A program made the translations under genes and the position numbers. The notes beneath the pieces were generated by a model. It did no database searches. It saw only the letters and a program-made list of their open reading frames with translations, and was not told the origin of the DNA. 64,000 bases of DNA, taken from Planctomycetota bacterium. Its GTDB lineage: Bacteria > Planctomycetota > MHYJ01 > WSZJ01. The stretch covers positions 176,082 through 240,081 of the forward strand of contig JBBTCT010000009.1 of the NCBI GenBank assembly GCA_038060895.1, written 5' to 3'. Positions 1 to 53,732 of this stretch are shown one piece after another; within the stretch, counting starts at the first letter, position 1, and each line of letters begins with the position of its first letter.

Positions 1-1940
1 CCGGGATCGGGCCTCGCGACTCGCGCCACCAGCCCCGCAATCTCAGCCCCCCAGCGCGCCGGGTCAGCGACCCATTCCGGGTCGAGAGCGCTCGCAAAAG
101 CCGCAGCGCGTCCGCGCCCGAACGGCCGGGTGGCCGCGAGCGGGCGCCCGCCTGCGACAAAGAGCGATTCGGCACCGTCCTTGGGTTTGACGACGTTCAG
201 TTGGCGCACGCCGGGAAGCCCTTCGCAGGGAAAATCTCCCTTTGCCGTCAGCCCCTGCTCACGGGCCAGGTCTTCCCGAAGAATCTTCGAGAGTTCGGCG
301 AGGTTCTTCATCTTGTAGAAGTGCCCCGGGGCAATTTTCTCCAGGAGGGTGCCGTTGGCATCTGAGCCCTCCGCAATCGCCGACACTGTCGCCCCCGCAG
401 AGCGGAGCGCATCGGCCCGCTCGATCAGCACCGCCGGATCTTCTGCGCTCTGGCCGTCGCTCACGAGCACGACATGCCGCTTTCCGCCCGAGCCGATCGC
501 CTCGCTGGCCTTGGCCAGCGCCGGGGCGATGAGCGTCGGGCCTCCCGCGTCGAGCTGGTCGATGGCGCGGAGGAGGGAGGCCCGGTCAGAAGTGGGCGAG
601 TGGATCCACCGTGCCTGCTCCGCGAAGGCAACGAACGCGAACGTCGTGTTCTCGCGTGCGGCGCCGACGAGCGACCGCAACGCCTCCCGCGCCTCGGCGA
701 GTTTGCGTCGGCCCGGGGAGACCTCCTCGTTCATGGAACCGGAAGCGTCGAGAAGGACGACGAGGGTGAAATTCTCCTCGGGGACGGAAGTGACGGGGAG
801 AGCTTCGTCGAGCGGTGTGTCGCCGAATCCGCCGGACCCGAAGCCGGCAGCGCCGCCGAGGACGAGCAGCCCGCCGCCGTTCCTCACGTAGTCCGCGAGA
901 CGAGCCATCGCGGGATCGCCCAGTTCCTCCGCGGAGATGCCATCGAGCACGACTGCGGCGTAGAGCGAGAGGTCCATCGGTCTTACGGAGGATTCCGGAG
1001 AGAAGCGCTTGTCGGCCGCCAGCGCCGCTTCAGCAGAACGCCCCGCATCCGGGGCGAGAACGAGCACCGGAAGAGTTCCGTCGAGCAGCACCGGCGCTTC
1101 GTTCCTGTCGTTCGCCGGCGCGGAGTCGCGGAAATCCAGCGCCTGGATGCGGGCTTCGAGCCACGTGAGGGCCTGCGTCGCGGCGGGCTGGGGAAACACG
1201 ACGCGCGCCGGAATGCCGGCTTCGAGCCCGATGTCGCGGACGTCTCCGCCCAGGCTGACGCGCGCTTTCGTCGGGAGGGAGGCGGAAACCGTGACCACCG
1301 CATCGAAGCGCTCCCCGGCGCGAACCCGCCCCGGCGCTTCGACCCGGTCCACGCGCGCGTCCGTCCGGCGGGTGGAGCCGCACGGGACTGTCCGGACTGC
1401 GATGCCGCGCCGGCGTGCCGCGGCGGCGGCGATCGCGCCCGAGCTTCCGGCGGGAACCTCGCGTCCGTCCGAGATCACCACAACCTCGCCGTGCCTGCCG
1501 GCAGGAACAAGCGCACCGGCCAGGTCAATCCCCTCCGCCAACTTCGTTGCTTCATTTCGCGGCAGGGATCTTGACTTCGTGAGCTGAATCAGTCGTGCGG
1601 CCGGTCCCGGCGCAAGCTCAACGACCGCCCGCTCCCCGACCCACACGAGCGCCGCTTCATCCCCCGCTCCGAGGTCCTGCGCGTCCTGCTTCGCCAGCAT
1701 CAGGGCTTCGCCCGGTCCTCCTACGCTGGCCGAGGCGTCAAGCACGTAGACGCGGCACCGGGGAAGCTCCCCGGGTGACCCGAACCGGGGCCCGGCCGCG
1801 GCGGCAATGACGGCGAGCGCGGCAAGCGAACGAACGACCATCCGGCGACGCAGCCAGACGACGGCGGCAAGGGCCGGGAGCGCGGCAAGCAGGAGGAGGG
1901 GGTGGTCCAGGGTCGATTCGAAATGCAAAGGGTGGGCCAT
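1..1940 (-). CDS. VWA domain membrane protein (two MIDAS motifs plus a GATase-like/DUF1355-type segment), runs off the left edge
   Basis: Not in the ORF track; partial manual translation from ATG 1940: MAHPLHFESTLDHPLLLLAALP (N-terminal TM), VYVLDASAS, GGLLVLGG..GFGSGGFGDTPLDEALPV, then LVVLLDASGSM. Confidence 0.75.
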   Translation of the reverse strand, partial: MAHPLHFESTLDHPLLLLAALPALAAVVWLRRRMVVRSLAALAVIAAAAGPRFGSPGELPRCRVYVLDASASVGGPGEALMLAKQDAQDLGAGDEAALVWVGERAVVELAPGPAARLIQLTKSRSLPRNEATKLAEGIDLAGALVPAGRHGEVVVISDGREVPAGSSGAIAAAAARRRGIAVRTVPCGSTRRTDARVDRVEAPGRVRAGERFDAVVTVSASLPTKARVSLGGDVRDIGLEAGIPARVVFPQPAATQALTWLEARIQALDFRDSAPANDRNEAPVLLDGTLPVLVLAPDAGRSAEAALAADKRFSPESSVRPMDLSLYAAVVLDGISAEELGDPAMARLADYVRNGGGLLVLGGAAGFGSGGFGDTPLDEALPVTSVPEENFTLVVLLDASGSMNEEVSPGRRKLAEAREALRSLVGAARENTTFAFVAFAEQARWIHSPTSDRASLLRAIDQLDAGGPTLIAPALAKASEAIGSGGKRHVVLVSDGQSAEDPAVLIERADALRSAGATVSAIAEGSDANGTLLEKIAPGHFYKMKNLAELSKILREDLAREQGLTAKGDFPCEGLPGVRQLNVVKPKDGAESLFVAGGRPLAATRPFGRGRAAAFASALDPEWVADPARWGAEIAGLVARVARPDP

Positions 1941-1955
1941 GAGACGGCCCGTTGT

Positions 1956-4884: not shown

Positions 4885-6078
4885 CTACTTCGCCGGCAGC
4901 CATCCGAGCAGCACGGTTGCGCCCTCACGCAGTCGGAAAGCCCCGGAGCCGTCCGGCGCGCACACCCAGGTTTCGCGGTGGGACTCCCTGACGCGCGGGT
5001 CGTCGCCATTGCTCTTGACTCCGCGCTCGAACGCCACGGCCGTCCCGTCCGGCGACCAGAGCAGGCTCGCGAATGCCAGGACGCAACCTCCGTCCGCACA
5101 AACCGTGGTTCCCAGGTTAGCCGTCTTGATGCCTTCAAGGTCCCGAATGACTCCCTCCAGCATGTAACCCTTTGACAGTTTCGTGTACGCCAATCGACGG
5201 CCGTCCGGGGACCAGGTCGCGCCTCCGCACCTGCCGGCCGCGATCACCTCGCCCGCTTCGCCGGAAACCGGGCAGATCCGAAGTCCCGTTTCCTCCGCCA
5301 GGGCAAAGCGCTTTCCGTCCGCCGACCATGCGACCTGCTCCGGGCGCGTTTGCCCTGCCTTCGCGACCGTCTTCCATTCTCCCGAGCTGAACGTGAGGAG
5401 ATCCACGGTGCACTCGAGCGTTGCCAGCGATTCCGAACGGACCGCGAGGAGGCGCGCGCCGTCCGGGGAAACGGAGATCTGGCTGACGTACAGGCCGTCG
5501 GTCACCTTTTTCACGGCGCCCTGCTCCCAGACGTACAGATCGCTGGACCCTTTCTTTGAGCCCACCAGGTGCGCGGTGAAGGCAAAGCGATCCGGGCCGC
5601 ACCAGGCGGATTCTCCGAGAAGCGCGCGCTCGCCCTGCGCGGGCCAGACTTTCACTCGGGTTTCCGGCTTTGCGACGTCTGCGATTTCGATCGTTGTGTT
5701 GTCTTTGCCGTCTCCCGTCAGGGCAATGCGAGTCCCTGCGTCATTGAGGGAGGCGCGAGCGTGGCCCTTGAACGCGGCGATTTCAGGAAACGCAAGGTCG
5801 AGGGCGTCGTGAATGCGGACGAACGCGCGCGCCTCGGCGTCGTATCCGGAAACGATGAACCGGCCTGAAATGAACCGGGCGGCGCTGTTGCCCTGGCGGA
5901 TGGCGATGGATGCCGGGGAGGCGAGCAACTTTCCCGAGGGCGCCACGACATGGAGCTTGTGGCTTTCGTCGAGGATCACAATGCGGCCTGCGCCATCAAA
6001 GCGGTCCCGCTCGGCGGTTTCGGCCAGTAGCGGTGACTGTAAGGCGACGAGCGCGAGCGAGGCGAGGAAGGGGCGCAT
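4885..6078 (-). CDS. secreted TolB-like beta-propeller protein
   Basis: Signal peptide; repeated WSPDG/SPDG/WSADG blade motifs. Confidence 0.75.
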   Translation of the reverse strand: MRPFLASLALVALQSPLLAETAERDRFDGAGRIVILDESHKLHVVAPSGKLLASPASIAIRQGNSAARFISGRFIVSGYDAEARAFVRIHDALDLAFPEIAAFKGHARASLNDAGTRIALTGDGKDNTTIEIADVAKPETRVKVWPAQGERALLGESAWCGPDRFAFTAHLVGSKKGSSDLYVWEQGAVKKVTDGLYVSQISVSPDGARLLAVRSESLATLECTVDLLTFSSGEWKTVAKAGQTRPEQVAWSADGKRFALAEETGLRICPVSGEAGEVIAAGRCGGATWSPDGRRLAYTKLSKGYMLEGVIRDLEGIKTANLGTTVCADGGCVLAFASLLWSPDGTAVAFERGVKSNGDDPRVRESHRETWVCAPDGSGAFRLREGATVLLGWLPAK

Positions 6079-6166
6079 TCGTGTCTCCGTGTGGGTTTCG
6101 CCACTATGACGAGCGAAGTGGGTCGGAAGTTCGGTGAAATCCGGTCTTTTCGGGCAGGGGAGCGCG

Positions 6167-6451
6167 TCAGGAGGTGCGCGCAGGCGGCGAGGCCGCGTTC
6201 TTCTCGGGCACCGGGTCCGGCCCGAATCCGCCCCAGGGGTGGCAGCGGCACAGCCGTTTCAGGCCGAGCCAGCCGCCGACGAACAGGCCGCGTTTCTGAA
6301 GCGCCTCCAGGCAGTACGCGCCGCAGGTCGGCTGAAAGCGGCAGACGTCGGGCATGATGCGCGAGAGAGTCATGCGGTAGACCCACATGCCGCCGATGCA
6401 GATCCAGCGCAGGGGTTCGAACGGCCACTCGTACCAGGGAATCTTCATCAT
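6167..6451 (-). CDS. yidD: membrane protein insertion efficiency factor YidD
   Basis: YRMTLS..CRFQPTCGAY..GLKRLCRCHPWGGFGPDPVP; the start overlaps the upstream stop (ATGA). Confidence 0.93.
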   Translation of the reverse strand: MMKIPWYEWPFEPLRWICIGGMWVYRMTLSRIMPDVCRFQPTCGAYCLEALQKRGLFVGGWLGLKRLCRCHPWGGFGPDPVPEKNAASPPARTS

Positions 6452-7218
6452 TTCACCGCAGCCAGGTCCTTCCATTCGAGGCGCTTCGCTCCGAGCACTT
6501 TTCTCGTCGCGGGGTCGCGGGCCACGATCGCCAGGTAGACATTGGCCGTCTTCCAGTCTCCTCCGAGCGGGATATCGAATCCGGTGTTGCCGTCTTTGTC
6601 TGGCGTTGAAGGCCTGGAGAGAAAGCGGACGACTCCGTGCTCAGTGACCGTGTGACCCTTGAGCTCCCCCGCCTTGATCTCGGTGGTCAGGTTGTTCTCA
6701 GCCACCGCGACCGTCACTTCGACCGCCTGTTTCACGTCGGGCGGCAGAGTGACCCTCGCTTCAACGAACGCGTTGACCGCCCGGACTTTCCCGGAGGCCG
6801 TAATGGTCGCGGCCGCCGTGGCCTTGCCGTCGTCGTCGATTCGCTTCACGGCCTGCCCCATGTTCGACGTGTGTATCGCGCCGCTCACGACGATCATCGG
6901 CGTGTACATCCCCTTGCTCGCGAGCGGCTTCTCGTACGCCTTCTGCGCTTCCGTCATCTGTTTCGAACCGAATGGGTCCTTCCATCCGAGCCGGTCCCAG
7001 TAGTCCACGTGGTAGACGAGCGCGATTGCGTTCTCGAAGCCCTTCTCCTGCTTCGCAATTTTCCCGAGGAACTCCTCGGCGGGCGGGCAGGATTCTCACC
7101 CCTGGCTGGAGAAGAGTTCGACAAGCACGGGGGTGCCTCCGGGTTTGGGATCCTCGCCGGCGGTGAGCGTGGCGAGAAGGGGAGTGAGCGCGAGGGCGAA
7201 GATGGCGGAGAAGCGCAT
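6448..7218 (-). CDS. DUF1223-family secreted thioredoxin-like protein with in-frame TGA at 7096-7098 (probable selenocysteine, UxxC)
   Basis: AGGAG RBS, signal peptide, VELFSSQG-TGA-ESCPPA..HVDYWDRLGWKDPF..YTPMIVVSG..GEL.G.T..EHGVVR; 771 nt in one frame. Confidence 0.88.
7064..7079 (-). promoter_or_regulatory. putative bacterial SECIS hairpin
   Basis: CCGAGG-AGUU-CCUCGG stem-loop begins 16 nt after the UGA; the apical loop starts after 22 nt and has GU at positions 2-3. Confidence 0.65.
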
Positions 7219-7264
7219 GCGATGAACTCCTGTTCGTGTCCGGCGTGATTGTAACCGCGACGGA

Positions 7265-7636
7265 TCAGCGCGGGCCCAGGGGTTCAGGTCCGCCGTCCGC
7301 GGGCGCGGCCTTGCGGGCAAGCTTGACGACCGAAGCGGCGACTTCGGCGAGCGTGAGGTTGATGGTTTTCCGGGGCAGGAAGAGATAGTCCCAGCCCGGC
7401 GTCAGTTCTTCGCGGTGCAGGCGGAACGACTCCCGCAGCAATCTCTTGATTCGGTTGCGGATGGGTTTCGCCCGCACGTGCTTCCCGACGACGATGCCGA
7501 GCCGGGGAAGGCCGAGTCCGTTGGGGCGGGCGTGGAGTTGCAGGACGCCATCCCTCGCTTTGTGGGCGGAAGCGAAGGCCTGGTCGAATTCGTCGCGGCG
7601 GGTGAGGCGGAGGAGTTTGGGATAATTGTTGGGCAC
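7265..7636 (-). CDS. rnpA: ribonuclease P protein component
   Basis: YPKLLRLTRRDEF..RLGIVVGKHV...RNRIKRLLRESFR; GTG start 6 nt after TATGCT. Confidence 0.93.
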   Translation of the reverse strand: MPNNYPKLLRLTRRDEFDQAFASAHKARDGVLQLHARPNGLGLPRLGIVVGKHVRAKPIRNRIKRLLRESFRLHREELTPGWDYLFLPRKTINLTLAEVAASVVKLARKAAPADGGPEPLGPR

Positions 7637-7753
7637 GCGAAGAGCATAGCGGATCCGGCCGCTCTCCAGCCAAGAGGGAAACTGCATACCTTTGCGCGCG
7701 AAGAGCGCGCGCCGTACATTCCTCGCGTCTCTTGTGAGGGACGCACGACCGTC

Positions 7754-8029
7754 ATGGGTTCTCCCGTCGCCTACCAATGCGTGAATCACCCGGGTCGCCC
7801 TGCGATCGGGGTCTGTGTCAAGTGCCAGGCGCCGGTGTGCCCGGACTGCACGACGAAAGTCCAGGGGATCAACCATTGCCTGTCGTGCCTGCAGCTCCGC
7901 GTCAAGCCGACCGATACTTCGATCCGCCGTCCGCCCCCGTCCGTGACGCCGGCCGGAATCGCGGCGGCATTCGCCTTCTTCGTGCTCGTATTCGCCCTTC
8001 TCGGCGCCGCGTTCGTGGCGGCGGCCTGA
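7754..8029 (+). CDS. B-box-like zinc finger protein with C-terminal TM
   Basis: CVNH-x8-CVKC-x4-CPDC-x9-CLSC followed by a hydrophobic tail. Confidence 0.8.
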   Translation: MGSPVAYQCVNHPGRPAIGVCVKCQAPVCPDCTTKVQGINHCLSCLQLRVKPTDTSIRRPPPSVTPAGIAAAFAFFVLVFALLGAAFVAAA

Positions 8030-8926
8030 ATGGAACTGCGCAGCACCATCCCGCTTGCTCGACGCTTCGGGCCGATGGAAGTCGTGGACTCCGCCATCTG
8101 GTTCGCGCGCGACAACGCCGTGGCGTTCGTCACCACGGCAGGGGCGGGCGGACTCGCGTTCGCCCTGGCGCTCGCGACCTGTTTCAACCGCCTGGGCGCG
8201 CTGCCGCCGGGGGCCAAGGTCGAGGACCACCTCGTCGAAGTGGCGATCTGGGGCGTCCTCCTCGCCGCGCTTTTCCTTGGCCGGGGCCTCGGTCACTGGG
8301 CCGTCGTCGAACGGCTCTCCGCGTCCCTGCGAGGGGAAACTCGTACTCCTGAGGCTTGCTGGGCCGCCGCACTGAAGAACCCGGGGGCCGCGCTCTTTCT
8401 CGCCGGCGTTCCCGGCATGGCGCAGTGGGCCGGGTTCCTCGCCATCTGGCCGGGGCTGGCGTTCATGAACCGCTGGAGCGGCGCTCTTCCGGCCGCCGTC
8501 TTCGAAAAGCTCGAGCCGGCGCGCGCGCTTCGCCGCTCCCGCGACCTCATGGCCGGGTCGAACAACGCGATGGCCGTCTGGGGATTCCTTTTCGTCGCCT
8601 GGGTCATCCTCTTCGTCAACGTGCTCTTCGCAGGAGCCATGCTCCCGGACTTCCTCCGCGGGTTCTTCGGCATCAACCTCCCTCGTTTCGAGCAGGCGGT
8701 CTCGCCAGGCAACGGCCTCTTCATCGCCGTCGCCATCGTCTTCACGTGGGCTGCGTGTGACGCGCTTCGCGCCGTGGCCTTCGCGATTCTCTACCTGAAC
8801 GCTCGGATCGAGCGGGAGGGCGGGGACCTGCAGTCGCGGCTGGAAGCGTTCAGGTCCGGGCGAAGAGCGGGGGTTGCTTCGTACAAGGCGCCGGCAGCGG
8901 AGCCGCAGGAGGCGACGCATGCGTGA
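8030..8926 (+). CDS. multi-pass membrane protein of the MoxR cluster
   Basis: Several TM segments; ALRRSRDLM and ILYLNARIEREGGDL motifs typical of this cluster. Confidence 0.8.
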   Translation: MELRSTIPLARRFGPMEVVDSAIWFARDNAVAFVTTAGAGGLAFALALATCFNRLGALPPGAKVEDHLVEVAIWGVLLAALFLGRGLGHWAVVERLSASLRGETRTPEACWAAALKNPGAALFLAGVPGMAQWAGFLAIWPGLAFMNRWSGALPAAVFEKLEPARALRRSRDLMAGSNNAMAVWGFLFVAWVILFVNVLFAGAMLPDFLRGFFGINLPRFEQAVSPGNGLFIAVAIVFTWAACDALRAVAFAILYLNARIEREGGDLQSRLEAFRSGRRAGVASYKAPAAEPQEATHA

Positions 8927-9755
8927 AGCGATGCTGGTGCTGCTGATGGCGGTGGCCGCGGTGGCGGGGGACGAGGAGCGGCGCGCGGAGGACCGGAATC
9001 TGCGCGGGGACGCGAAGTCCTCCAGGTACGAGGAAGCGCTGAAGGGTTGGAAAGCGAAGCGTGGTGGCGATGCGGACGATGCCGCGCGCCGCGAGCGGCT
9101 GGACCGGATCCTGCGGGAAGAAACGACGCGCGACGAGATTCCGCCGGTTCCCCGGGAGCGGGAAATTGAGAAACGGGATCCGGACAATTCGAAAGAAACG
9201 AAGCGAACTCCTCCTCTGGAGGTCAGCACGGGAGGGTCGGCCTCCGCGGCGTCAGGACTCGCCAATCTCATGTATGGAGTCCTCATCCTCCTGGCCGCCG
9301 CGGTAGTCGCATTCGCAATCTACGGGATCGTCATGGCCATCCAGCGATCCAGGCGCCGCCCGCTGAAGGACGACGCCGTCGAAGTTGTGACCGGTGAGGA
9401 GGAGCGAGGTGGGGCCGCACCGCCGATTCTGCGCGACCCGGAGGAATGGCTCGCCGAAGCCCGCCGGCTTGCGGCGGCGGGGCGCTGGATCGAGGCGCTG
9501 CGCTGCCTTCTCTTCGCTTCCCTTGAACGGCTGCACCGCATGCGCTTCATCGATTACCAGCGTGCCCGCACGAATCGCGAGTGCGTGAGGGCGTTCACGG
9601 GGCCGGACGCGCGGCGAGTGCCGTTTGGCGCGCTGGTCGATGCGTTCGACATTGCGGTTTATGGCCAGCGCCCGTTCGGCGCGGCCGATTATGCGCAGGC
9701 CGAGGCTGCCGCCCGCGAGCTCGGGAAAGGAGACGCGCATGAAGGCGTCGCCTGA
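8919..9755 (+). CDS. DUF4129 domain protein
   Basis: Signal/TM, then EARRLAAAGRWIEALRCLL..RTNRE..FDIAVYG. Confidence 0.8.
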   Translation: MREAMLVLLMAVAAVAGDEERRAEDRNLRGDAKSSRYEEALKGWKAKRGGDADDAARRERLDRILREETTRDEIPPVPREREIEKRDPDNSKETKRTPPLEVSTGGSASAASGLANLMYGVLILLAAAVVAFAIYGIVMAIQRSRRRPLKDDAVEVVTGEEERGGAAPPILRDPEEWLAEARRLAAAGRWIEALRCLLFASLERLHRMRFIDYQRARTNRECVRAFTGPDARRVPFGALVDAFDIAVYGQRPFGAADYAQAEAAARELGKGDAHEGVA

Positions 9756-10875
9756 GCGCGGGTGGATCGGCATCGCCGGGCTGGTCGCCTTCGCTGCGAT
9801 TCTGGTGTGGGGCGCGGTGCGGGAATTCCGGGCACGCGAGGCGCGGGGCAAGACGGACCGCGGGTCGATCTTCTCTCCCGACGCGAGCGGGACGCGGGCT
9901 CTGTTCCTGCTGCTCCGGTCCGAAGGTCTTGCCGTGACGCCGATGACGCGGCCGCCGACCGCGGCGATGGAAAAAGGGCTGCTGGTCGTGATCGACCCGG
10001 GAATCGAGATGGACAAGGATGCCGCGGGGCAGGTCGTGGACTGGATCGAATCCGGCGGCGCCGTGGTGCTCGCCGGTGAATATCTTGGCGCGCTCGGCCT
10101 GGCTCTGAAGGCCACCTCCTCGGTGCCGACTCAGAGAGAACTGGGGCTCGCGCTTCCGACTCATCGCTCGGACAGATTTGCGCTCGCGACTGGCAGCAAT
10201 TCGGAAGTTACGGTCGAAGGGGAGCGCGACGTTCTTCTCAGGCGGGACAGCGCCGCCCAGGCGGTCGAACTCGAGCGCGGCCAGGGGAAGGCCGTCCTGC
10301 TCCCGGACGCGTTCTGCGCGACGAACTCGGGACTCGACATGGCGGACAACGCTTCGTGGTGGGTCGAAACGTGCCGCCGGCTTTCGGATGGCCGGCCGGT
10401 GATGTTTCTCGAGACGGTTCACGGCTTCGCTCGCGAACCTTCTATCCCTGAATACTTCACGGACAAAGGTCTCGGTCCATTCGTGCTTCAGCTGTTTCTC
10501 GTCGCGGGCGTGCTCGTCTGGCTGCTTGGGTCCCGCAAGGCGCCGCCGCTCGCGCCCTCCATGCTGATCCGCAGGCCGGCGGCAGAGTACGCCGCGACGA
10601 TGGCACAGCTCTACAGGCAGGGGAGGTCGGAAGCGCACGCGGCGGGAGTCGCGCTCTCTGAACTCGAGGCGTGGTGGAGGCGTCCCGCTTCGGCGCGGGC
10701 GTTCGCAAGGCTCGACGCGGCGCGGAAAGCCGCGGTACTGAAGGAAATCGAATCCCTGGCGTCGGAAGGTCGCGGGCTCACGGGGCTCGCCCGGCCCGGG
10801 GAAGATGCCGTGCACGGCTGGGTGTCGCGCGCGGCGGCGTTCCGAAGGAGGGTGACCGGTGACGATCGTGAATGA
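9739..10875 (+). CDS. DUF4350 domain protein
   Basis: N-terminal TM, SIFSPDASGTRALFLLL, WIESGG, GQGKAVL, NSGL..ADNA, second TM, EYAATMAQLY. Confidence 0.78.
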   Translation: MKASPERGWIGIAGLVAFAAILVWGAVREFRAREARGKTDRGSIFSPDASGTRALFLLLRSEGLAVTPMTRPPTAAMEKGLLVVIDPGIEMDKDAAGQVVDWIESGGAVVLAGEYLGALGLALKATSSVPTQRELGLALPTHRSDRFALATGSNSEVTVEGERDVLLRRDSAAQAVELERGQGKAVLLPDAFCATNSGLDMADNASWWVETCRRLSDGRPVMFLETVHGFAREPSIPEYFTDKGLGPFVLQLFLVAGVLVWLLGSRKAPPLAPSMLIRRPAAEYAATMAQLYRQGRSEAHAAGVALSELEAWWRRPASARAFARLDAARKAAVLKEIESLASEGRGLTGLARPGEDAVHGWVSRAAAFRRRVTGDDRE

Positions 10876-11830
10876 AGCACCCGCGGGCCTCAAAGCAATA
10901 ACCGGGGCCGTACGCGCTGAACTGCACAAGGTGATCATCGGGCAGGACGACGCCCTGACGTGGATGATGCTGGCGGTGTTCCTCCGGGGCCACGTGCTCC
11001 TCGAAGGCGTCCCCGGCACCGCGAAGACGCTCGCCGTCCGCACGCTGGCGAAGACGCTTCATGCCTCGTTCCGCCGCGTCCAGTTCACACCCGACCTCAT
11101 GCCGAGCGACGTCACCGGAGTGCATATCTTCGACCTGCAGAAAAACGAGTTCACCCTTCGCAAGGGACCGATCTTCACCGACCTCCTCCTCGCCGACGAA
11201 ATCAACCGCACGCCGGCAAAAACCCAGGCGTCGCTTCTCGAAGCCATGCAGGAGCGGAGCGTCACGATCGACGGCGAGACGCACCAGCTGCCGTCCATCT
11301 TCACGGTGTTCGCGACGCAGAACCCGATCGAAATGGAAGGGACCTATCCGCTCCCCGAAGCCCAGACCGACCGGTTTCTCTTCAAAGTGTCGATCACCTA
11401 TCCCGCTCCGGCCGAGGAAGAGGCCGTCCTGCGCGCGTACCACGAGGGGCGCGAACCGCACGACATCGAGCGCGCGGGCGTGAGGGCGGTGCTCACGGCG
11501 GAGCAGGTGCTCGCGGCGAAGCGCCTGATCGATTCGGTCCAGGTGTCCGACGGGCTGATCACCTATGTCCGCAAGGTCGTCGCCGTGACGCGCGAGTCGC
11601 CCGACGTGCTCCTCGGCTGCGGCACGCGCGCAGGGATTCACCTGCTCCTTGCGGCGAAGGGGCTTGCGGCCATGGACGGCCGCGCGTTCATCCTGCCGGA
11701 CGACGTGAAGCGCGCCTCCGTTCCGGTCATGCGCCACCGCCTGATTCTCAACCCGGAGGCTGAAGTCGAAGGCCTGAAGCCGGAAAATGTCATCGAGCGC
11801 ATCCTTGCCAAGGTCGAGGTTCCGCGGTGA
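10859..11830 (+). CDS. MoxR family AAA+ ATPase
   Basis: GHVLLEGVPGTAKT, RVQFTPDLMPSD, LLADEINRTPAKTQASLLEAMQE, ATQNPIEMEGTYPLPEAQTDRF. Confidence 0.96.
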   Translation: MTIVNEAPAGLKAITGAVRAELHKVIIGQDDALTWMMLAVFLRGHVLLEGVPGTAKTLAVRTLAKTLHASFRRVQFTPDLMPSDVTGVHIFDLQKNEFTLRKGPIFTDLLLADEINRTPAKTQASLLEAMQERSVTIDGETHQLPSIFTVFATQNPIEMEGTYPLPEAQTDRFLFKVSITYPAPAEEEAVLRAYHEGREPHDIERAGVRAVLTAEQVLAAKRLIDSVQVSDGLITYVRKVVAVTRESPDVLLGCGTRAGIHLLLAAKGLAAMDGRAFILPDDVKRASVPVMRHRLILNPEAEVEGLKPENVIERILAKVEVPR

Positions 11831-13134
11831 GGCCGACGCCCCGATTCGTCGTGCTCTTCGCGCTGGGGCTCGTCCCGGCGGCGCTCGCGGTGCGCGGCGA
11901 CTTCTGGCTGTTCGTCGCGGCGGCGTGGGACGCGGCGCTGGTGCTGCTGCTTCTCGCGGAACGCTCCGCAGGGGTCCGGCACGGCTGGATCGAGGTCGAG
12001 CGGACGCTTCCCGACAAGATCTGTGTCGGCGAGCCGAACGCGTGCGCGCTGACGTTCCGGAATTTCGCTTTTCTGCCGCTTCGGGTTTCCGCGATCGAGG
12101 GATGGCCGTCGGAATTCGAAGCGGAGCCGTGGGAATTCCAGGTCAAGGTGGACGCGTACGGTTCCCAGACGGTGAAGTACGTTCTGCGGCCTGGCGGGCG
12201 GGGAGAGTTCGAACTGGGGCCGGTGCAGGTGCGCGTGCGGTCCCCGCTGGGGCTGATCGAAAAGCGGATGTCGTTCGGAACTCCGCTGAAAGTCCGGGTG
12301 TACCCGAACCTGAAAGACCTGCGCCGCTATGACCTGCTGTCGCGGCGGCGCCTGCTCTCGCAGCAGGGGATCCGCGCAGTGCGCCGCGTCGGCGAAGGGC
12401 GCGAGTTCGAGCGGCTGCGCGAATACTCGTCGGGCGACGAGCTTCGGACGATCGACTGGAAGGCGACCGCGCGCCGCCGCAAGCCGACCGTCCGCGTTCA
12501 CGAGACCGAGCGTGGCCAGAACGTCCTCATTCTCCTCGACGCCGGCCGCTTGATGGCCGCCGCGACGGGCGGACTGACCAAGCTCGATTTCGCGATCAAC
12601 GCCGCGCTCATGCTCGGTTACGTCGCGCTTCGCAACAACGACCGGGTCGGGCTCGCGGTGTTCTCGAGCGACGTCGAATCGTTCGCCCTTCCGCGCGCCG
12701 GCAAAGCCGCGCTCGCGCGGCTCATGGACGCCCTGGTGCCGCTTCAGCCCCGCCTGACCTTCTCGAACTACCGCGCCGTGATCGAATCCGTCCGCGCCAA
12801 GATGCGGCGGCGCGCGCTCGTCGTGATGTACACGGACCTGGCGGATCCCGAGGCGATGGAAGAGATCGTCGAGGTTTTCCCGGTGCTGCGCCGCAGCCAC
12901 CTGCCGATGTGTGTGTCGTTCCGGGATCCTGCGCTTCTCGAAATGGCCCACGCCCCGCCCGCGCGCGCCGCCCTGTACGAACACGTCGCCGCGATGGAGA
13001 TGGTCGCGGAACGCCGCAAGGCCCTCGGCGACCTGCGCGCGGCGGGAGTGAACATCGTCGATGTCCCGCCTGAGGAAATCGCCGTCGCGTCCGTGAATCG
13101 CTACCTCAGGCTCAAACGCATGCAGGCGATCTGA
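11827..13134 (+). CDS. DUF58 (VWA-like) protein
   Basis: VRVYP, EFERLREYSSGDELRTIDWKATARR, LLDAGRLM, DRVGL. Confidence 0.92.
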   Translation: MRPTPRFVVLFALGLVPAALAVRGDFWLFVAAAWDAALVLLLLAERSAGVRHGWIEVERTLPDKICVGEPNACALTFRNFAFLPLRVSAIEGWPSEFEAEPWEFQVKVDAYGSQTVKYVLRPGGRGEFELGPVQVRVRSPLGLIEKRMSFGTPLKVRVYPNLKDLRRYDLLSRRRLLSQQGIRAVRRVGEGREFERLREYSSGDELRTIDWKATARRRKPTVRVHETERGQNVLILLDAGRLMAAATGGLTKLDFAINAALMLGYVALRNNDRVGLAVFSSDVESFALPRAGKAALARLMDALVPLQPRLTFSNYRAVIESVRAKMRRRALVVMYTDLADPEAMEEIVEVFPVLRRSHLPMCVSFRDPALLEMAHAPPARAALYEHVAAMEMVAERRKALGDLRAAGVNIVDVPPEEIAVASVNRYLRLKRMQAI

Positions 13135-13136
13135 CC

Positions 13137-14114
13137 ATGGACCTCGACCGCTTCATCTCGCAACGGCAGGGCGCCTGGCGGCGCCTCGAGGCCACGCTTC
13201 AGCAAATCGAGCGAAGCGGCCTGGACACGCTGACGGTCGCGCGGCTTCGCGAGCTGGGGGCGCTCTACCGGCAGTCGTGCTCCGACCTCATCTACGCGCG
13301 GACCGTCCTCCAGAACGACGAGCTCGGGGACTTTTTGAACAAGCTTGTCGGCGACGCTTACGCGGCCATCTACCGGCGGTCGTGGCTGACGCCGGGAGCG
13401 GCGTGGACGTGGTTCGCAAGGGGATTGCCCGCCACGGTCCGGCGAAGCTGGGGGCCCGTTCTTGCCGCGTGGATCCTGCTGCTCGGAGGCACGGCGGCGG
13501 GGTTCTTCGGCACGCTCCGGGACAAGGAAGCGTTCTACTACATCGTTCCCAGCGAGTACCACCACGTTTACGCGAAGAAGGCCGACGATCCTCGCGAGGC
13601 GCGCTTCGGCAACAGCGTCACCATCGCGAAATCCCGCGACTTCGCCGCCATGCTTTTCACGCACAACATCAAGGTCTCGCTCACGGCCTTCGCGCTGGGC
13701 ACGAGCGGGGGAACGCTCACGTCCGTCATGATGGCTTACAACGGCGCGCTTCTCGGCAGCATCGCTGCCAATTACCACCGCTGGGACCAGGATCTCGAAT
13801 TCTGGGGACTCATCGTTCCCCACGCCGGGCTCGAACTCTCTTCCATTGCGCTCGCCGGCGCGGGCGGACTTATGCTCGGCTGGGGACTCATCCGGCCGGG
13901 GAGAAAGACGCGGGGCGAAGCGTTTTCCGATGCGGGGAAGGAAGCGGTGTCGCTCGCACTGGGCGCTGCGCCGTTCCTGGTCATCGCCGGTTTCATCGAG
14001 GCATTCGTGACGCCGTCGGATGCGATCGGGCCGACGGCCAAAGTCATTCTCGGGGTCATGACCGGCGCGGGAATGTGGATCCACCTGCTGCTGCCGAGGA
14101 GGACCGCTGCCTAG
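13137..14114 (+). CDS. stage II sporulation protein M (SpoIIM/DUF95) family membrane protein
   Basis: LYRQSCSDL, FTHNIKVS, YNGALLG, IVPHAGLELSSI, AGFIEAFVTP. Confidence 0.9.
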   Translation: MDLDRFISQRQGAWRRLEATLQQIERSGLDTLTVARLRELGALYRQSCSDLIYARTVLQNDELGDFLNKLVGDAYAAIYRRSWLTPGAAWTWFARGLPATVRRSWGPVLAAWILLLGGTAAGFFGTLRDKEAFYYIVPSEYHHVYAKKADDPREARFGNSVTIAKSRDFAAMLFTHNIKVSLTAFALGTSGGTLTSVMMAYNGALLGSIAANYHRWDQDLEFWGLIVPHAGLELSSIALAGAGGLMLGWGLIRPGRKTRGEAFSDAGKEAVSLALGAAPFLVIAGFIEAFVTPSDAIGPTAKVILGVMTGAGMWIHLLLPRRTAA

Positions 14115-14880
14115 CCCCTCCTGGATCGACCGCGTTCACGTCATCACGACCCCCGAGGCCGTCGATTTCGCGTACGACCTGGCGGGGGCCGGCCCGCGGA
14201 CGCTCGCGTGGCTGGTCGACGCGAGCATCATCGCGGTGCTGACGGTCGGCGCCGCGATCTTCGCCGCCGCCATCCGCGTCAACGCCATCGGCTTCGTCCT
14301 CGTCTTCGCCGTCCAGACCTGCTACTTCCTCGTGCTCGAGGCCTGGATGCACGGCCAGACGCCCGGCAAGAAAGTTTTCGGCATCCGCGTCATCGACGCA
14401 CGCGGCTTCCGCATCTCGTTCCTGCAGTCCGCCCTTCGCAACATCCTCCGCTTCGCCGACTCTCTCCCCGCGTTCTATCTCGTCGGCGGCGCCGTCTGCC
14501 TCTTCAACCGCCGCGGACTCCGCCTCGGCGATCTCGCGGCCGGGACCATCGTGATCCGCATCCCGACCGTGCCTTCTCCCGAGCGGCTGCTTCCCGCGGG
14601 GCAGCGAAGCGACGCTCTTCTCGGCGATTTCGCCCTCGGCGAGCGCGTCCGGCGGGTGCTGAGATCACCGGAAAAGGACCTGCTGGTGTCTCTGGCGATC
14701 CGGCGCGAGCGGCTCGAGCCGCGTCCTCGAAGCGAAGTCTTCGAGGCGGCGGCGGCCTGGTTTGCCGGCCGCCTGGAGATTCCGAAACCTCCCACCATGA
14801 GCGCCGAAACATATATCCTCAATCTCGCCGCTATTGCGCATTCTCCGCAGCGGCGAACCCAACCCCCGAAAGCGAGGTGA
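14107..14880 (+). CDS. RDD family protein (probable CTG start)
   Basis: ITTPEAVDFAYDLAG..RTLAWLVD, GQTPGKKVFGIRV, RNILRFAD, RLGDLAAGTIVI; GAGGAGG precedes CTG 14107. Confidence 0.85.
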   Translation: MPSPSWIDRVHVITTPEAVDFAYDLAGAGPRTLAWLVDASIIAVLTVGAAIFAAAIRVNAIGFVLVFAVQTCYFLVLEAWMHGQTPGKKVFGIRVIDARGFRISFLQSALRNILRFADSLPAFYLVGGAVCLFNRRGLRLGDLAAGTIVIRIPTVPSPERLLPAGQRSDALLGDFALGERVRRVLRSPEKDLLVSLAIRRERLEPRPRSEVFEAAAAWFAGRLEIPKPPTMSAETYILNLAAIAHSPQRRTQPPKAR

Positions 14881-50340: not shown

Positions 50341-50613
50341 ATGATTTCAAAAGACCTCCTCGACATCCTCGCCTGCCCCCTCTGCAAGGGCGACCTCCGC
50401 CTCGAGGGCGCCAAACTCCACTGCGCCAACCCTTCCTGCGGCTGCCGTTACGCCGTCATCGATGACATTCCGGACATGTTGATCGAGGAAGCGGAGCGCC
50501 CCTGTCCCAAGTGCTCGGCGCAGCGGAAGTGGGAGCCGGAGAACGATTCGCTGACGTGCGAAAAATGCGGCGAGCGGTTCGCGTGGCAGCGCTCGGGGGC
50601 TAAGGCCAAGTAG
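50341..50613 (+). CDS. Trm112/YcaR-like protein with an extra zinc ribbon
   Basis: LLDILACPLCKGDL..YAVIDDIPDMLIEEA, then CPKC..CEKC. Confidence 0.85.
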   Translation: MISKDLLDILACPLCKGDLRLEGAKLHCANPSCGCRYAVIDDIPDMLIEEAERPCPKCSAQRKWEPENDSLTCEKCGERFAWQRSGAKAK

Positions 50614-52430
50614 TGGACAAGCTGCGGCCGGTCATTGCGATCGTCCTGTGCCTGGTGATCTGGGGCGTGTACTTCAAGTTCTTTGCGCCGGACACCCCGA
50701 AGTCGCAGCCGAAAAAGCCCACGCCGACCGAGATCGGAAAGGGGCCGGGCGGGACCAACGGCAACGGAACGATCGTTGAAAAGCCGCCGGTCGATCCGGC
50801 CCAGCCGCCGCCGGCCGCGTTCACCCACCCGGTCGTCGCCGTTGATAACACGGTCCTCGAGAACGAGGTCCTCCGCGTCGAGATCACAAATGCCGGCGCG
50901 TCCGTCCGACGGTTGATCCTCAAGGCGTACAAGGATCCCTTCGAGCGCGACGAACACGGCAACCGGAAAGATCTCGCCTTCCTCGATGAATTCCAGGCGG
51001 GATTCCGGTCTCTCTCGCTTCGAGACTCCGCGGGCGTGCTTCCCCTCGATACCGTCAACTGGGAAACCCTGGAAGCGCCCGCAGGAGAGGTGAAGTACCG
51101 GTACACGACGCCCGACGGGCTTCGGATCGTGAAGACGATCGGCTTGGGGCCGGAGAAGCACGCGGTGAAGTTGAAACTGGAGGTGGAGAACATCTCCGAG
51201 ACCCCGCTGGCGCGCGGCCTGGAATTGATCGGGGCGGCCGGGATCGTGCAGGAGGCGAGCGGCGGGATTTATCCGTCGGACGCGGCGGGGCTGTGGCGCG
51301 ACGGCAAGACCTATTCGGTCGACACCCATTCGAGCGGAAGCGGATGCTGCGGGCCCAGCGCGCCGCTCAAGGACCTGACCGCGAAAATGCGCGAAACGGA
51401 CCTTGCGGGCGTGTCCTGGAACGCCGCCGTGAACAAGTACTTCGTCTGCGCCATCATCCCTCGCCCCGAAGACCGCGCGTCGGTCGCGAAGTTCCGTTCG
51501 TGGGCCATCGAATTCAAGGCCGAGGCGAAACGAAAACTCGAACACGAGAAGATTTCGCGGTCAGACCCGAAGGCGAAAGAGCTGCTCGACTGGACCGTGA
51601 ATACCGTCGCCATCAGCGCGGTGCTGAAGGACCGCACCTGGCAGAAGGGGGAGAAATCCTCCACCGAGTGGGTGATCTTCGCCGGGCCGAAGGAGACCGA
51701 CGCGCTGAACGAGGGGCGCTTCAAGGACTGGCGTCTCGGGGACCTGCTCGACTTCGGCTGGTTCGGGATCATCAGCAAACTGCTCCTCACAATCATGGGG
51801 TGGATGCACTTCGTGTTCCGCAATTGGGGCCTCGCGGTCATCGCGCTCGTCCTCATCGTCCGCATGTGCATCTTCCCGATCTCAAAGAAGGCACAGGTCT
51901 CGATGTTCCGGATGCAGAAACTGCAGCCGCAGCTCAAGGTGATCCAGGAGCGCTACAAGGGCGACCCCTCGCGCGTGAACGCCGAGACGATGAAGTTCAT
52001 GAAAGAGCAGGGCGTAAACCCGATCGGCGGCTGCCTGCCGCTCTTCCTGCAGCTCCCCATCTTCCTCGGCCTCTACAACGCACTTCTCAGCGACATCCAC
52101 CTGCGCCAGCAGCCGTTCTTCGGCTGGATCAACGACCTGTCGCAACCCGACCACCTCGCGAATCTCCCGTTCAGCGTCCCGATGCACGCGACGAACGCTT
52201 TCAACCTCCTGCCGCTCGTCATGATGGCAACGTGGTTCATCCAGGCGTTCATGGCGCCTCGGAGCCCCGACCCGCAGATGGCGGCGCAGCAGAAGATGTT
52301 CATGATCATGCCGCTGGTGATCGGCTGGATGATGTACATGAGCCCCTCGGGCCTCGTGCTCTATTGGCTCGTGTCCACGGCGTGGGGCATCGCCGAGCAG
52401 CAGTACATCAAGAGGACGTACCTGAAGTAG
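50613..52430 (+). CDS. yidC: membrane protein insertase YidC
   Basis: Periplasmic domain; DFGWF, NWGLAVI, MQKLQP, GVNPIGGCLP..LQLPIF, WINDLSQPD, PSGLVLYW. Confidence 0.97.
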   Translation: MDKLRPVIAIVLCLVIWGVYFKFFAPDTPKSQPKKPTPTEIGKGPGGTNGNGTIVEKPPVDPAQPPPAAFTHPVVAVDNTVLENEVLRVEITNAGASVRRLILKAYKDPFERDEHGNRKDLAFLDEFQAGFRSLSLRDSAGVLPLDTVNWETLEAPAGEVKYRYTTPDGLRIVKTIGLGPEKHAVKLKLEVENISETPLARGLELIGAAGIVQEASGGIYPSDAAGLWRDGKTYSVDTHSSGSGCCGPSAPLKDLTAKMRETDLAGVSWNAAVNKYFVCAIIPRPEDRASVAKFRSWAIEFKAEAKRKLEHEKISRSDPKAKELLDWTVNTVAISAVLKDRTWQKGEKSSTEWVIFAGPKETDALNEGRFKDWRLGDLLDFGWFGIISKLLLTIMGWMHFVFRNWGLAVIALVLIVRMCIFPISKKAQVSMFRMQKLQPQLKVIQERYKGDPSRVNAETMKFMKEQGVNPIGGCLPLFLQLPIFLGLYNALLSDIHLRQQPFFGWINDLSQPDHLANLPFSVPMHATNAFNLLPLVMMATWFIQAFMAPRSPDPQMAAQQKMFMIMPLVIGWMMYMSPSGLVLYWLVSTAWGIAEQQYIKRTYLK

Positions 52431-52442
52431 GCCGGTCGAGGG

Positions 52443-53732
52443 TTGAAGGTGGAGACGATCGTCGCGCTCAGTTCCCCTCCCGGCCCGGCGGCGCGCGCTG
52501 TCATCCGGCTCTCCGGGCCCCGCGCACTCGAAATCGGCGCTTCCCTCTGCGGCGTCCCGCGCCCGTCGTGCCGAACCGCCGTTCGCGGCGCGTTCACGGC
52601 GTGCGGCGCCCAGGCGCCGGTGCTTCTGCTCGCCATGCCCGCGCCGCGCAGCTACACGCGCGAGGACGTCGCTGAGATGCACCTGCCGGGCGCTGCACCG
52701 ATCGTGGCCGAAGCGCTTCGGCGCGCCCTCGCGGCCGGCGCGCGGCACGCTCTTCCCGGCGAGTTCACGCGCCGCGCCTACGAAAACGGGCGCCTCTCGC
52801 TGGCGCAGGCTGAAGCGGTGATGTCCGTGATCCGCGCGGGCGACGACGCCTCCCTGCGGCTCGCGGCCGAGAGGCTGGCGGGGAAGGGCGGCCGGGCGCT
52901 GGACGCCGCATCGGACCTGCTCTCCTCGCTTGTCGCAGACGTGGAGGCGTCGATTGATTTCATCGAGCACGACGTGCCGTGCGTCGGGCGCGAAGAAGTG
53001 ATCGAGCGGGTTGCCGCGCTCGCCGAAAGGCTGTCGCGCGCCGGCTCCGGCGCAGCGCCGGCCGACGACGCGCCCCGCGTCGTTCTCGCCGGCCCGCCAA
53101 ACGCGGGAAAGACCTCGCTCTTCAACGCGCTCACCGGCGCCCGCGGCCTCGTTTCGCCGCTTCCCGGGACGACGCGTGATGCGCTCGAAGCGGACCTGGT
53201 CCTGGGATACCTTCTCGTCCGCATCTCCGATGCGCCGGGGGACGCGCCCTGCGAACCGGGCCCGGACGCTGAAGCCGCTTCGCGCGGCCGTTCGGCGCGC
53301 GACCGGGCGGACATCGTGCTGCACCTGCGCGACGGTTCGCGCCCCTTCAACGCCCCGGCGCTCGACCCCGCGCGGGAGCTCCTGGTGATCACCAAGGCCG
53401 ACCTCGGCTCTGCCCTGAGCGAGTCGAAGGGACTTGCCGTCTCTGCGCTCACTGGCGCGGGGATTCCCCGGCTGCGCGCGCGCATCGCCCTCCTGGCCCG
53501 TCGCCGCGCCGGGGAGTCAGACAGCGTTCTCTCGGCGCGCGAACGCGAAGCGACGCGACGGGCGACCGATGCGCTGGAGCGCGCCCGGCGAGCGGCTGCC
53601 GACGTGTTGGGCGAGGAGTTCATTGCGCTTGAATTGCGCGAGGCGCTCGACGCCCTGGGCGAGGCGGTCGGGGTGGTTAGTAGCGAGGAAGTTTTGGACC
53701 GCGTTTTCGCGAGGTTTTGTATTGGGAAGTGA
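52443..53732 (+). CDS. mnmE: tRNA modification GTPase MnmE
   Basis: TIVALSSPPG..IRLSG, PRSYTRED, PGEFTRRA, GPPNAGKTSL, PGTTRD, FCIGK; start may be GTG 52449. Confidence 0.9.
   Translation: MKVETIVALSSPPGPAARAVIRLSGPRALEIGASLCGVPRPSCRTAVRGAFTACGAQAPVLLLAMPAPRSYTREDVAEMHLPGAAPIVAEALRRALAAGARHALPGEFTRRAYENGRLSLAQAEAVMSVIRAGDDASLRLAAERLAGKGGRALDAASDLLSSLVADVEASIDFIEHDVPCVGREEVIERVAALAERLSRAGSGAAPADDAPRVVLAGPPNAGKTSLFNALTGARGLVSPLPGTTRDALEADLVLGYLLVRISDAPGDAPCEPGPDAEAASRGRSARDRADIVLHLRDGSRPFNAPALDPARELLVITKADLGSALSESKGLAVSALTGAGIPRLRARIALLARRRAGESDSVLSAREREATRRATDALERARRAAADVLGEEFIALELREALDALGEAVGVVSSEEVLDRVFARFCIGK

Follow-up and report, generated by a model that had tools for sequence, protein, structure and literature searches.

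A DUF1223 thioredoxin-like gene of Planctomycetota whose in-frame TGA is probably read as selenocysteine

Does a TGA triplet that falls inside a conserved redox motif end a protein, or does it encode selenocysteine (Sec)? The question is raised by a gene of the DUF1223 family on the minus strand of a 64,000-nucleotide stretch of the Planctomycetota contig JBBTCT010000009.1 (the whole stretch, with a G+C content of 62-68%, is called the window below), which the standard code splits into two minus-strand open reading frames (ORFs), 7096..7320 (74 amino acids, ending ...VLVELFSSQG) and 6448..7008 (186 amino acids). Both were found in the same frame, and minus-strand positions 7218..6451 form a single frame of 256 codons whose sole internal TGA lies at 7098..7096, as had been claimed in an earlier reading of this DNA from its letters and ORFs (the sequence-only reading). 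With the TGA read as U the two pieces join as ...VLVELFSSQG-U-ESCPPAEEFLGK...HVDYWDRLGWKDPF, giving a readthrough product of 256 residues, MRFSAIFALALTPLLATLTAGEDPKPGGTPVLVELFSSQG-U-ESCPPAEEFLGK...HVDYWDRLGWKDPF.... From the sequence comparisons set out here we consider it very probable that codon 41 is decoded as Sec and that this is a genuine Sec-form DUF1223 gene, with U-x-x-C in place of the C-x-x-C of the family. The elements on which the argument turns are as follows.

6451..7218, minus strand: proposed DUF1223 selenoprotein coding sequence, ATG at 7218..7216, terminal stop TGA (6450..6448) just outside these coordinates
7096..7098, minus strand: proposed Sec codon, the in-frame TGA at codon 41, first position of U-E-S-C
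7087..7089, minus strand: resolving Cys of the UxxC motif, TGC at codon 44
7064..7079, minus strand: putative core of a bacterial selenocysteine insertion sequence (SECIS), CCGAGG (7079..7074), AGUU (7073..7070) and CCUCGG (7069..7064)

The readthrough product belongs to a single protein family on both sides of the TGA. Its match to Pfam DUF1223 (PF06764) spans the codon, residues 32-231 covering profile positions 1-199 of 202 (E 2.4e-46; 158.8 bits against a cut-off of 30.7), and at E up to 0.01 Pfam gave DUF1223 alone, with no match to PF00085, PF01323 or PF13098. NCBIfam release 20.0, searched at E up to 0.01, returned no selenoprotein model (among them NF047660, NF045500, NF040730 and NF041383), its sole match being Omp28 at 25.4 bits, far under the cut-off of 150. 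By sequence the sole relative in the PDB is 2axo_A (Atu2684; E 6.7e-22), in which U41 stands opposite the first Cys of CASC, and DUF1223 has been placed as thioredoxin-like on the basis of 2axo in accessible parts of PMC3091736. An AlphaFold2 model computed with alignment A2, which holds 55 sequences (the five Sec forms described below and 50 full-length homologues picked from 110 matches listed), reached a predicted local distance difference test score (pLDDT) of 91 and a predicted template modelling score of 0.86. It puts residue 41 in the loop between a strand (31-37) and a helix (44-55), the canonical active-site position of the thioredoxin fold, and shows a beta-rich C-terminal domain after the thioredoxin-like one; the best structural matches in the PDB (Foldseek) were 2axo (E 2.8e-14; template modelling (TM) scores 0.61/0.69) and HBP35 (5y1a; E 9.7e-14). 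The earlier description of the product as a DUF1223 thioredoxin-like protein is thus borne out by profile and modelled fold alike.

The TGA column is conserved among relatives. A protein-database search gave 1733 relatives at E up to 1e-5, and among the matches listed the ten closest proteins (54-99% identity) are all short, 169-204 amino acids, and start at assorted ATG or GTG codons past the CxxC column; none of them is annotated at full length, and one bears the NCBI name "hypothetical protein". The next match, P0012, has 43% identity and is full length (257 amino acids) with CSSC at the motif (VELFTSQGCSSCPPAEDYL), and the other 109 matches listed measure 235-285 amino acids. A search of genome contigs yielded four loci (L001-L004), all from metagenome-assembled genomes (MAGs) of Planctomycetota and 68-74% identical over the whole query, and a TGA occupies the same column in all four. 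Three of the truncated database proteins, P0004, P0007 and P0010, are the gene calls of L003, L004 and L002, respectively. The flanks are kept as PVLVELF[ST]SQG-U-[ES]SCP[PK]AEEFLGK in the Sec forms, and the TGA column is Cys in 50 of the 50 Cys-form homologues of alignment A2, which agrees with the proposal that the TGA sits exactly at the first Cys of CxxC; the homologue comparison suggested together with that proposal thus finds TGA in the MAG loci and Cys in the full-length homologues. Invariant across the 55 sequences are E34, G40, C/U41, C44, P45, A47, H70-V-D-Y-W-D75, G78 and W79. As the same codon recurs in five independent assemblies, a sequencing error as the source of the TGA is excluded.

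Selection on the gene was estimated by the Nei-Gojobori method from the 10 pairs of the five Sec-form genes (the window gene and L001-L004), as proportions of nonsynonymous (pN) and synonymous (pS) differences:

11 codons directly 5' of the TGA: mean pN 0.025, mean pS 0.346, ratio 0.07
30 codons 3' of the TGA: mean pN 0.078, mean pS 0.413, ratio 0.19
Rest of the gene: mean pN 0.189, mean pS 0.517, ratio 0.37
Signal-like peptide: pN/pS 0.47

Both flanks of the TGA are therefore under purifying selection in the same frame, in keeping with the earlier view that the gene is not a pseudogene; a TGA unique to one strain and followed by relaxed selection, the pattern that would have spoken for decay, is not what the four further loci and the downstream ratio present. 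In the five genes there is no conserved start codon between the TGA and Met88, and the GTG at which the gene call of the window begins is GTT in L001 and GTC in L002. Codons 42-87 can thus be translated solely by reading the TGA.

Downstream of the TGA, a CCGAGG/CCUCGG stem with an AGUU loop was located at 7079..7064, where the sequence-only reading had described it, with 16 nt from the UGA to the stem and 22 nt from the UGA to the loop. The consensus for bacterial SECIS elements (bSECIS; PMC13188914, section 5) asks for a loop of 3-9 nt, an upper stem of 4-16 bp, a UGA-to-loop distance of 16-37 nt, a G at loop position 1 or 2 that in most cases has G or U after it, and a minimum free energy (MFE) of at most -7.5 kcal/mol. 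The DUF1223 hairpin agrees with every one of these rules: its loop has 4 nt with G at position 2 followed by U, and the hairpin alone folds at -9.4 to -10.8 kcal/mol. The stem measures 6 bp in the window gene and in L002, and one pair more (7 bp, GCCGAGG...CCUCGGC) in L001, L003 and L004, and the core is nucleotide-identical in all five Sec-form genes. In 5/5 genes the five codons that make it up (A E E F L) are the same, when codon identity is found in 44 of the 123 degenerate columns with an invariant amino acid; with the rates of codon identity outside the hairpin (A 2/13, E 2/10, L 2/11, F 2/2) the joint chance is about 0.001, a post hoc hand calculation on related sequences. Of the 1497 TGA triplets on both strands of the window only 44 (2.9%) precede a hairpin that conforms to the rules with 6 or more Watson-Crick pairs, which also speaks against chance. 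Residues peculiar to the Sec clade make up the palindrome: 5/5 Sec forms and 0/50 Cys forms have F50, and where the Sec clade has E48 the Cys forms have D in 47/50, and G at position 52 in 4/50. As a negative control we took 16 Cys-form DUF1223 genes from 16 genera, drawn from 42 matching records of proteobacterial plasmids. After the Cys codon, none of the 16 shows a rule-conforming hairpin with 6 or more Watson-Crick pairs; two form stems of 6 bp or longer if G-U pairs are counted, at other distances. The proposed SECIS pattern therefore stands as far as the consensus rules and its presence in the five Sec forms are concerned, and the covariation that had been suggested as a check is absent, the stem being invariant.

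We propose that a ribosome reaching UGA41 would meet a hairpin beginning 16 nt downstream that acts as a bacterial SECIS and recruits SelB-GTP-Sec-tRNA(Sec), so that Sec would be inserted at UGA41 instead of termination. The N-terminal signal-like peptide would direct export to the periplasm, where Sec41, at the N-terminal end of helix alpha-1, and Cys44 may cycle between selenol/thiol and selenenylsulfide; the exported protein would be a thiol-disulfide oxidoreductase. Translation would end at UGA257, which overlaps the yidD start.

Several observations weigh against decoding as Sec and have to be set beside this evidence. Neither selA, selB, selD nor a tRNA-Sec was found within the 64-kb window (ARAGORN, Pfam on 38 ORFs, and Rfam, whose whole-window scan at gathering score gave a tRNA-Leu only), and bSECIS-like hairpins also turn up by chance, behind 2.9% of the TGA triplets of the window. 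The invariance of the stem leaves no covariation to be seen, its codons (GCC GAG GAG TTC CTC) are the preferred codons of a high-GC genome, and the folding energy is ordinary, the 49-nt segment having an MFE of -12.8 kcal/mol at a z of -0.45 with 67 of 200 shuffles folding at least as well, and the 45-nt MFE of the Sec forms (-12.8 to -18.6 kcal/mol) overlapping that of the Cys forms (-4.5 to -19.6 kcal/mol). The DNA evidence comes from just five sequences of one clade, which are not independent, and the TGA of seven further members is deduced from truncated gene calls alone. The remaining doubt about Sec decoding lies mainly with the Sec machinery, which was sought within the window and a few flank ORFs: nine flank ORFs of L001-L004, hand-chosen from 29 composition-filtered ones, held no sel gene, and no other selenoprotein gene was found in the window or in these flanks. 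A full Sec machinery is reported for some Planctomycetes (two Porphyra-associated strains, Gemmata obscuriglobus and Isosphaera pallida; accessible parts of PMC4807772), which says that the trait exists in the phylum and nothing more; the main text of PMC5029168 makes no mention of Planctomycetes.

How else could the frame be explained? The absence of Sec machinery from the window and the hairpin's ordinary folding energy and lack of covariation would fit a UGA that is read through without Sec, with tRNA-Trp or tRNA-Cys acting as near-cognate suppressor or through some other recoding, to give a full-length, selenium-free protein. We regard this as improbable, as the UGA stands precisely where an invariant CxxC has its nucleophilic Cys, the typical Sec position of UxxC families (PMC13188914, Table 1), and is accompanied in all five genes by a clade-specific hairpin of the bSECIS kind that is absent from all 16 Cys forms. 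Moreover, Trp at position 41 would leave the protein without its redox centre, which is hard to square with the purifying selection on the gene, and leaky suppression would give a low yield and offers no reason to retain TGA over TGC among loci that are 68-74% identical. Alternatively, translation might stop at UGA41, with the C-terminal part made from an internal start or, in a pseudogene, not made at all. Gene callers do predict the C-terminal piece alone in ten of the ten closest relatives, and ATG and GTG codons are present downstream of UGA41. However, the predicted internal starts differ among relatives, as the fate of the GTG of the window in L001 and L002 illustrates; the protein is strongly conserved both between the TGA and the first conserved Met and in the 11 codons upstream, the fold is modelled as a unit of which a fragment beginning past the TGA would lose strand beta-1 and the two redox residues along with the signal peptide, and a TGA kept in five assemblies excludes a sequencing error. 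A split or truncated gene is thus in our view very unlikely.

To a reassignment of TGA to an amino acid throughout the genome we give next to no credence. Nothing but the open frame itself would favour it, and the stops of the 28 Pfam-supported ORFs of the window are 12 TGA, 10 TAG and 6 TAA (one further ORF runs off the window edge). As TGA is the commonest ordinary stop there, the code is not reassigned; TGA also ends rnpA and, in four of the five genomes (window, L001, L002 and L003), the DUF1223 gene itself. A composition scan of the window flagged two TGAs with coding-like composition on both sides, one of them the DUF1223 TGA, so that there is one credible in-frame TGA in 64 kb, and no others were flagged in L001-L003. 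The reading of codon 41 as Sec, which the sequence-only reading had put forward, is supported by the TGA in the four MAG loci, by the N-terminal truncation of the ten closest database proteins, by selection on both flanks and by a hairpin found in 5/5 Sec forms against 0/16 Cys forms. The second flagged TGA, at 1776 on the plus strand, lies antisense to a VWA-domain gene (3..1955, minus strand) and looks like an artefact of composition. Folding energy was also considered as evidence for the SECIS and rejected, given the z of -0.45 and the lack of separation between Sec and Cys forms, and an Rfam scan of 6000..8000 (E up to 10) gave two chance-level matches, CRISPR-DR23 and sX4, with none at the hairpin. 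The 746 "Planctomycet" entries in the supplement of BSepDB were rejected as a list of Sec users and not used as evidence, the table comprising all genomes analysed.

The Sec forms occupy one corner of a large family, for which 8646 cluster representatives were found at E up to 0.001. When the relatives are clustered at 50%, the Sec clade shrinks to one representative (P0007), joined by the truncated protein P0131 (44% identity, beginning at query residue 56); together with P0003, P0005, P0006, P0008, P0009 and P0011 it makes up the seven relatives beyond L001-L004 that are truncated past the TGA column. A tree inferred by a quick maximum-likelihood run covered 50 rows: 39 Cys forms, the 5 Sec forms and 6 truncated proteins. 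P0004, P0007 and P0010 were omitted as gene calls of L003, L004 and L002, and P0009 was not among the rows either. In this tree the five verified Sec forms, the six truncated proteins and the Cys-form P0012 make up one subfamily with a Shimodaira-Hasegawa-like approximate likelihood ratio test (SH-aLRT) value of 100, and nine of its members form a core clade (SH-aLRT 96). The branching of P0012, P0011 and P0131 is not resolved in it, and the tree is compatible with a single Cys-to-Sec change near the base of the subfamily.

Compared with Cys-form members such as Atu2684/AGR_C_4864 of Agrobacterium tumefaciens (PDB 2AXO), the gene belongs to the same family by hidden Markov model, sequence and fold, and shares the motifs VELF-[ST]-S-[EQ]-G-C/U-x-x-C-P-x-A and HVDYWD..GW. 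It differs in having TGA (Sec) where they have TGC or TGT for the first redox residue, and in the Sec-clade residues E48, E49, F50 and G52, whose codons create the RNA hairpin that the 16 Cys-form genes lack. The likeness to known UxxC selenoproteins of thioredoxin fold (Sec-thioredoxin PF00085, Sec-glutaredoxin PF00462, DsbA-like form 1 PF01323 and the thiol:disulfide interchange protein PF13098; PMC13188914, Table 1) lies in a Sec that takes the place of the nucleophilic CxxC Cys at the start of helix alpha-1, in abundant Cys homologues and in a SECIS just downstream within the coding region, whereas Pfam family (DUF1223) and the C-terminal beta-sandwich domain set it apart. As in the bSECIS consensus (the bSECISearch model, best studied in E. 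coli fdhF), the stem-loop is inside the ORF directly past the UGA, but it is short and perfect, with no bulged base, and was judged by the quoted rules. We therefore see here a new Sec form within the known UxxC thioredoxin-fold selenoproteins with an in-ORF SECIS, and not a new mechanism.

The May 2026 review PMC13188914 lists in its Table 1 119 prokaryotic selenoprotein families and subfamilies with domain identifiers, among which PF06764/DUF1223 does not figure. In the full-text literature DUF1223 and selenoprotein were not found together, the papers that name DUF1223 having no selenium topic; a literature search for COG5429 and PF06764 gave nothing relevant, and DUF1223 was not found in 12 of the 14 supplementary files of PMC4807772, in a partial supplementary file of PMC13326102 or in the accessible supplement of PMC2398784. 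DUF1223 may thus be an addition to the known prokaryotic selenoproteome, and the case illustrates the kind of gene that, in phyla with sparse sampling, escapes a selenoprotein search built on known families, as described for BSepDB. The truncated database entries amount to a systematic mis-annotation that hides the redox domain from users of public annotations. For the large DUF1223 family the position of the Sec offers a functional lead, since it would identify the catalytic nucleophile as the first Cys of CxxC, and Sec at the CxxC argues for redox chemistry in the cell envelope.

The gene itself carries putative signals of expression and export, and stands between rnpA and yidD:

7159..7218, minus strand: signal-peptide-like N-terminus, about codons 1-20 (MRFSAIFALALTPLLATLTA), from the sequence itself and the low AlphaFold confidence of residues 1-24
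7227..7231, minus strand: Shine-Dalgarno-like AGGAG, 8 nt 5' of the ATG
7248..7253, minus strand: TACAAT hexamer, possible -10 promoter element, 29 nt 5' of the ATG
7265..7699, minus strand: rnpA (RNase P protein), upstream neighbour, start codon not fixed (Pfam Ribonuclease_P, E 1.7e-21)
6167..6451, minus strand: yidD, membrane protein insertion efficiency factor (Pfam YidD, E 4.6e-23)

The N-terminus is hydrophobic and left disordered by AlphaFold (pLDDT below 50 at residues 15-24), the low confidence of residues 1-24 being what is expected of a signal peptide. The ribosome-binding site that had been described upstream of the ATG is there as AGGAG at a spacing of 8 nt, with GGAG or GGGAG at the equivalent place in L001, L002 and L003. 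All five Sec-form genes, L004 included, have TACAAT at 27-32 nt 5' of the start codon, and in L001 and L003 a TGC in front of it recalls an extended -10 element. The hexamer may be the DUF1223 gene's own promoter within the 46-nt gap after rnpA, going by its position and conservation; as a scan for the sigma-70 consensus called no full promoter near the gene, the conserved hexamer is only a lead. The order rnpA, DUF1223 gene, yidD is kept in L001, L002 and L003, and since the neighbours there are 83-89% identical to those of the window, its organism belongs among these Planctomycetota. The Sec gene of L004 lies in another neighbourhood, with WD40 and TPR proteins.

At its 3' end the terminal TGA of the DUF1223 gene (6450..6448) overlaps the ATG of yidD as ATGA (6451..6448), just as the sequence-only reading had noted, and a stop/start overlap (ATGA or TGATG) is kept in 4 of the 4 loci with yidD downstream. 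This arrangement suggests that yidD is probably translationally coupled to full-length DUF1223 synthesis, and it would place a housekeeping gene downstream of a Sec-dependent ORF. A modulation of yidD by selenium is speculation. That DUF1223 is an exported Sec family of one planctomycete lineage whose Sec-UGA also gates yidD by selenium is, taken as a whole, doubtful; were it true, a shortage of selenium or Sec-tRNA would halt ribosomes at codon 41, which lies 648 nt before the yidD start, and less YidD would be made, so that envelope biogenesis would depend on selenium status.

In the window the classical rnpA-yidD-yidC-mnmE cluster is split: yidC and mnmE lie about 44 kb away on the other strand (50604..53732, plus strand, against 6167..7699, minus strand), and rnpA and yidD have the DUF1223 gene inserted between them. 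On the plus strand at 8799..14880 follows a run of DUF4129, DUF4350, MoxR-type AAA_3 ATPase, DUF58, SpoIIM-like and RDD genes, of which DUF4350 and DUF4129 also adjoin the Sec gene in L001. In that orthologue the signal-like peptide closes with a Cys at codon 21 (..FVAC-EDP..), a position filled by G, S or A in the remaining four genes; the L001 protein alone might, by this residue, be a lipoprotein.

The modelled two-domain fold as a whole resembles the hemin-binding HBP35 of Porphyromonas gingivalis (5Y1A; E 9.7e-14, TMq 0.65), and its C-terminal domain resembles Omp28 (2R2C; E 5.4e-05), the weak NCBIfam match to Omp28 pointing the same way; the likeness is one of two-domain architecture, at a sequence identity of only 12-14%, from which we draw neither membership nor function. 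Elsewhere in the family, the database protein P0128 (253 amino acids) consists of two tandem N-terminal thioredoxin-like halves of DUF1223, each with VELFTSQGCSSCP, and may have arisen by duplication or by the fusion of adjacent genes. A homologue on a plasmid of Bosea sp. AS-1 (L018:201-470) has C-S-V-S for CxxC, the first Cys kept and the resolving one lost, which fits the first position as the essential nucleophile. Annotated neighbours of plasmid-borne Cys-form genes include a protein-disulfide reductase with a DsbD domain (L012, Burkholderia), a PCu(A)C copper chaperone (L010, Microvirga) and a glutathione S-transferase (L006, Rhizobium), which hints that the DUF1223 family acts in the redox chemistry of the envelope or in copper handling.

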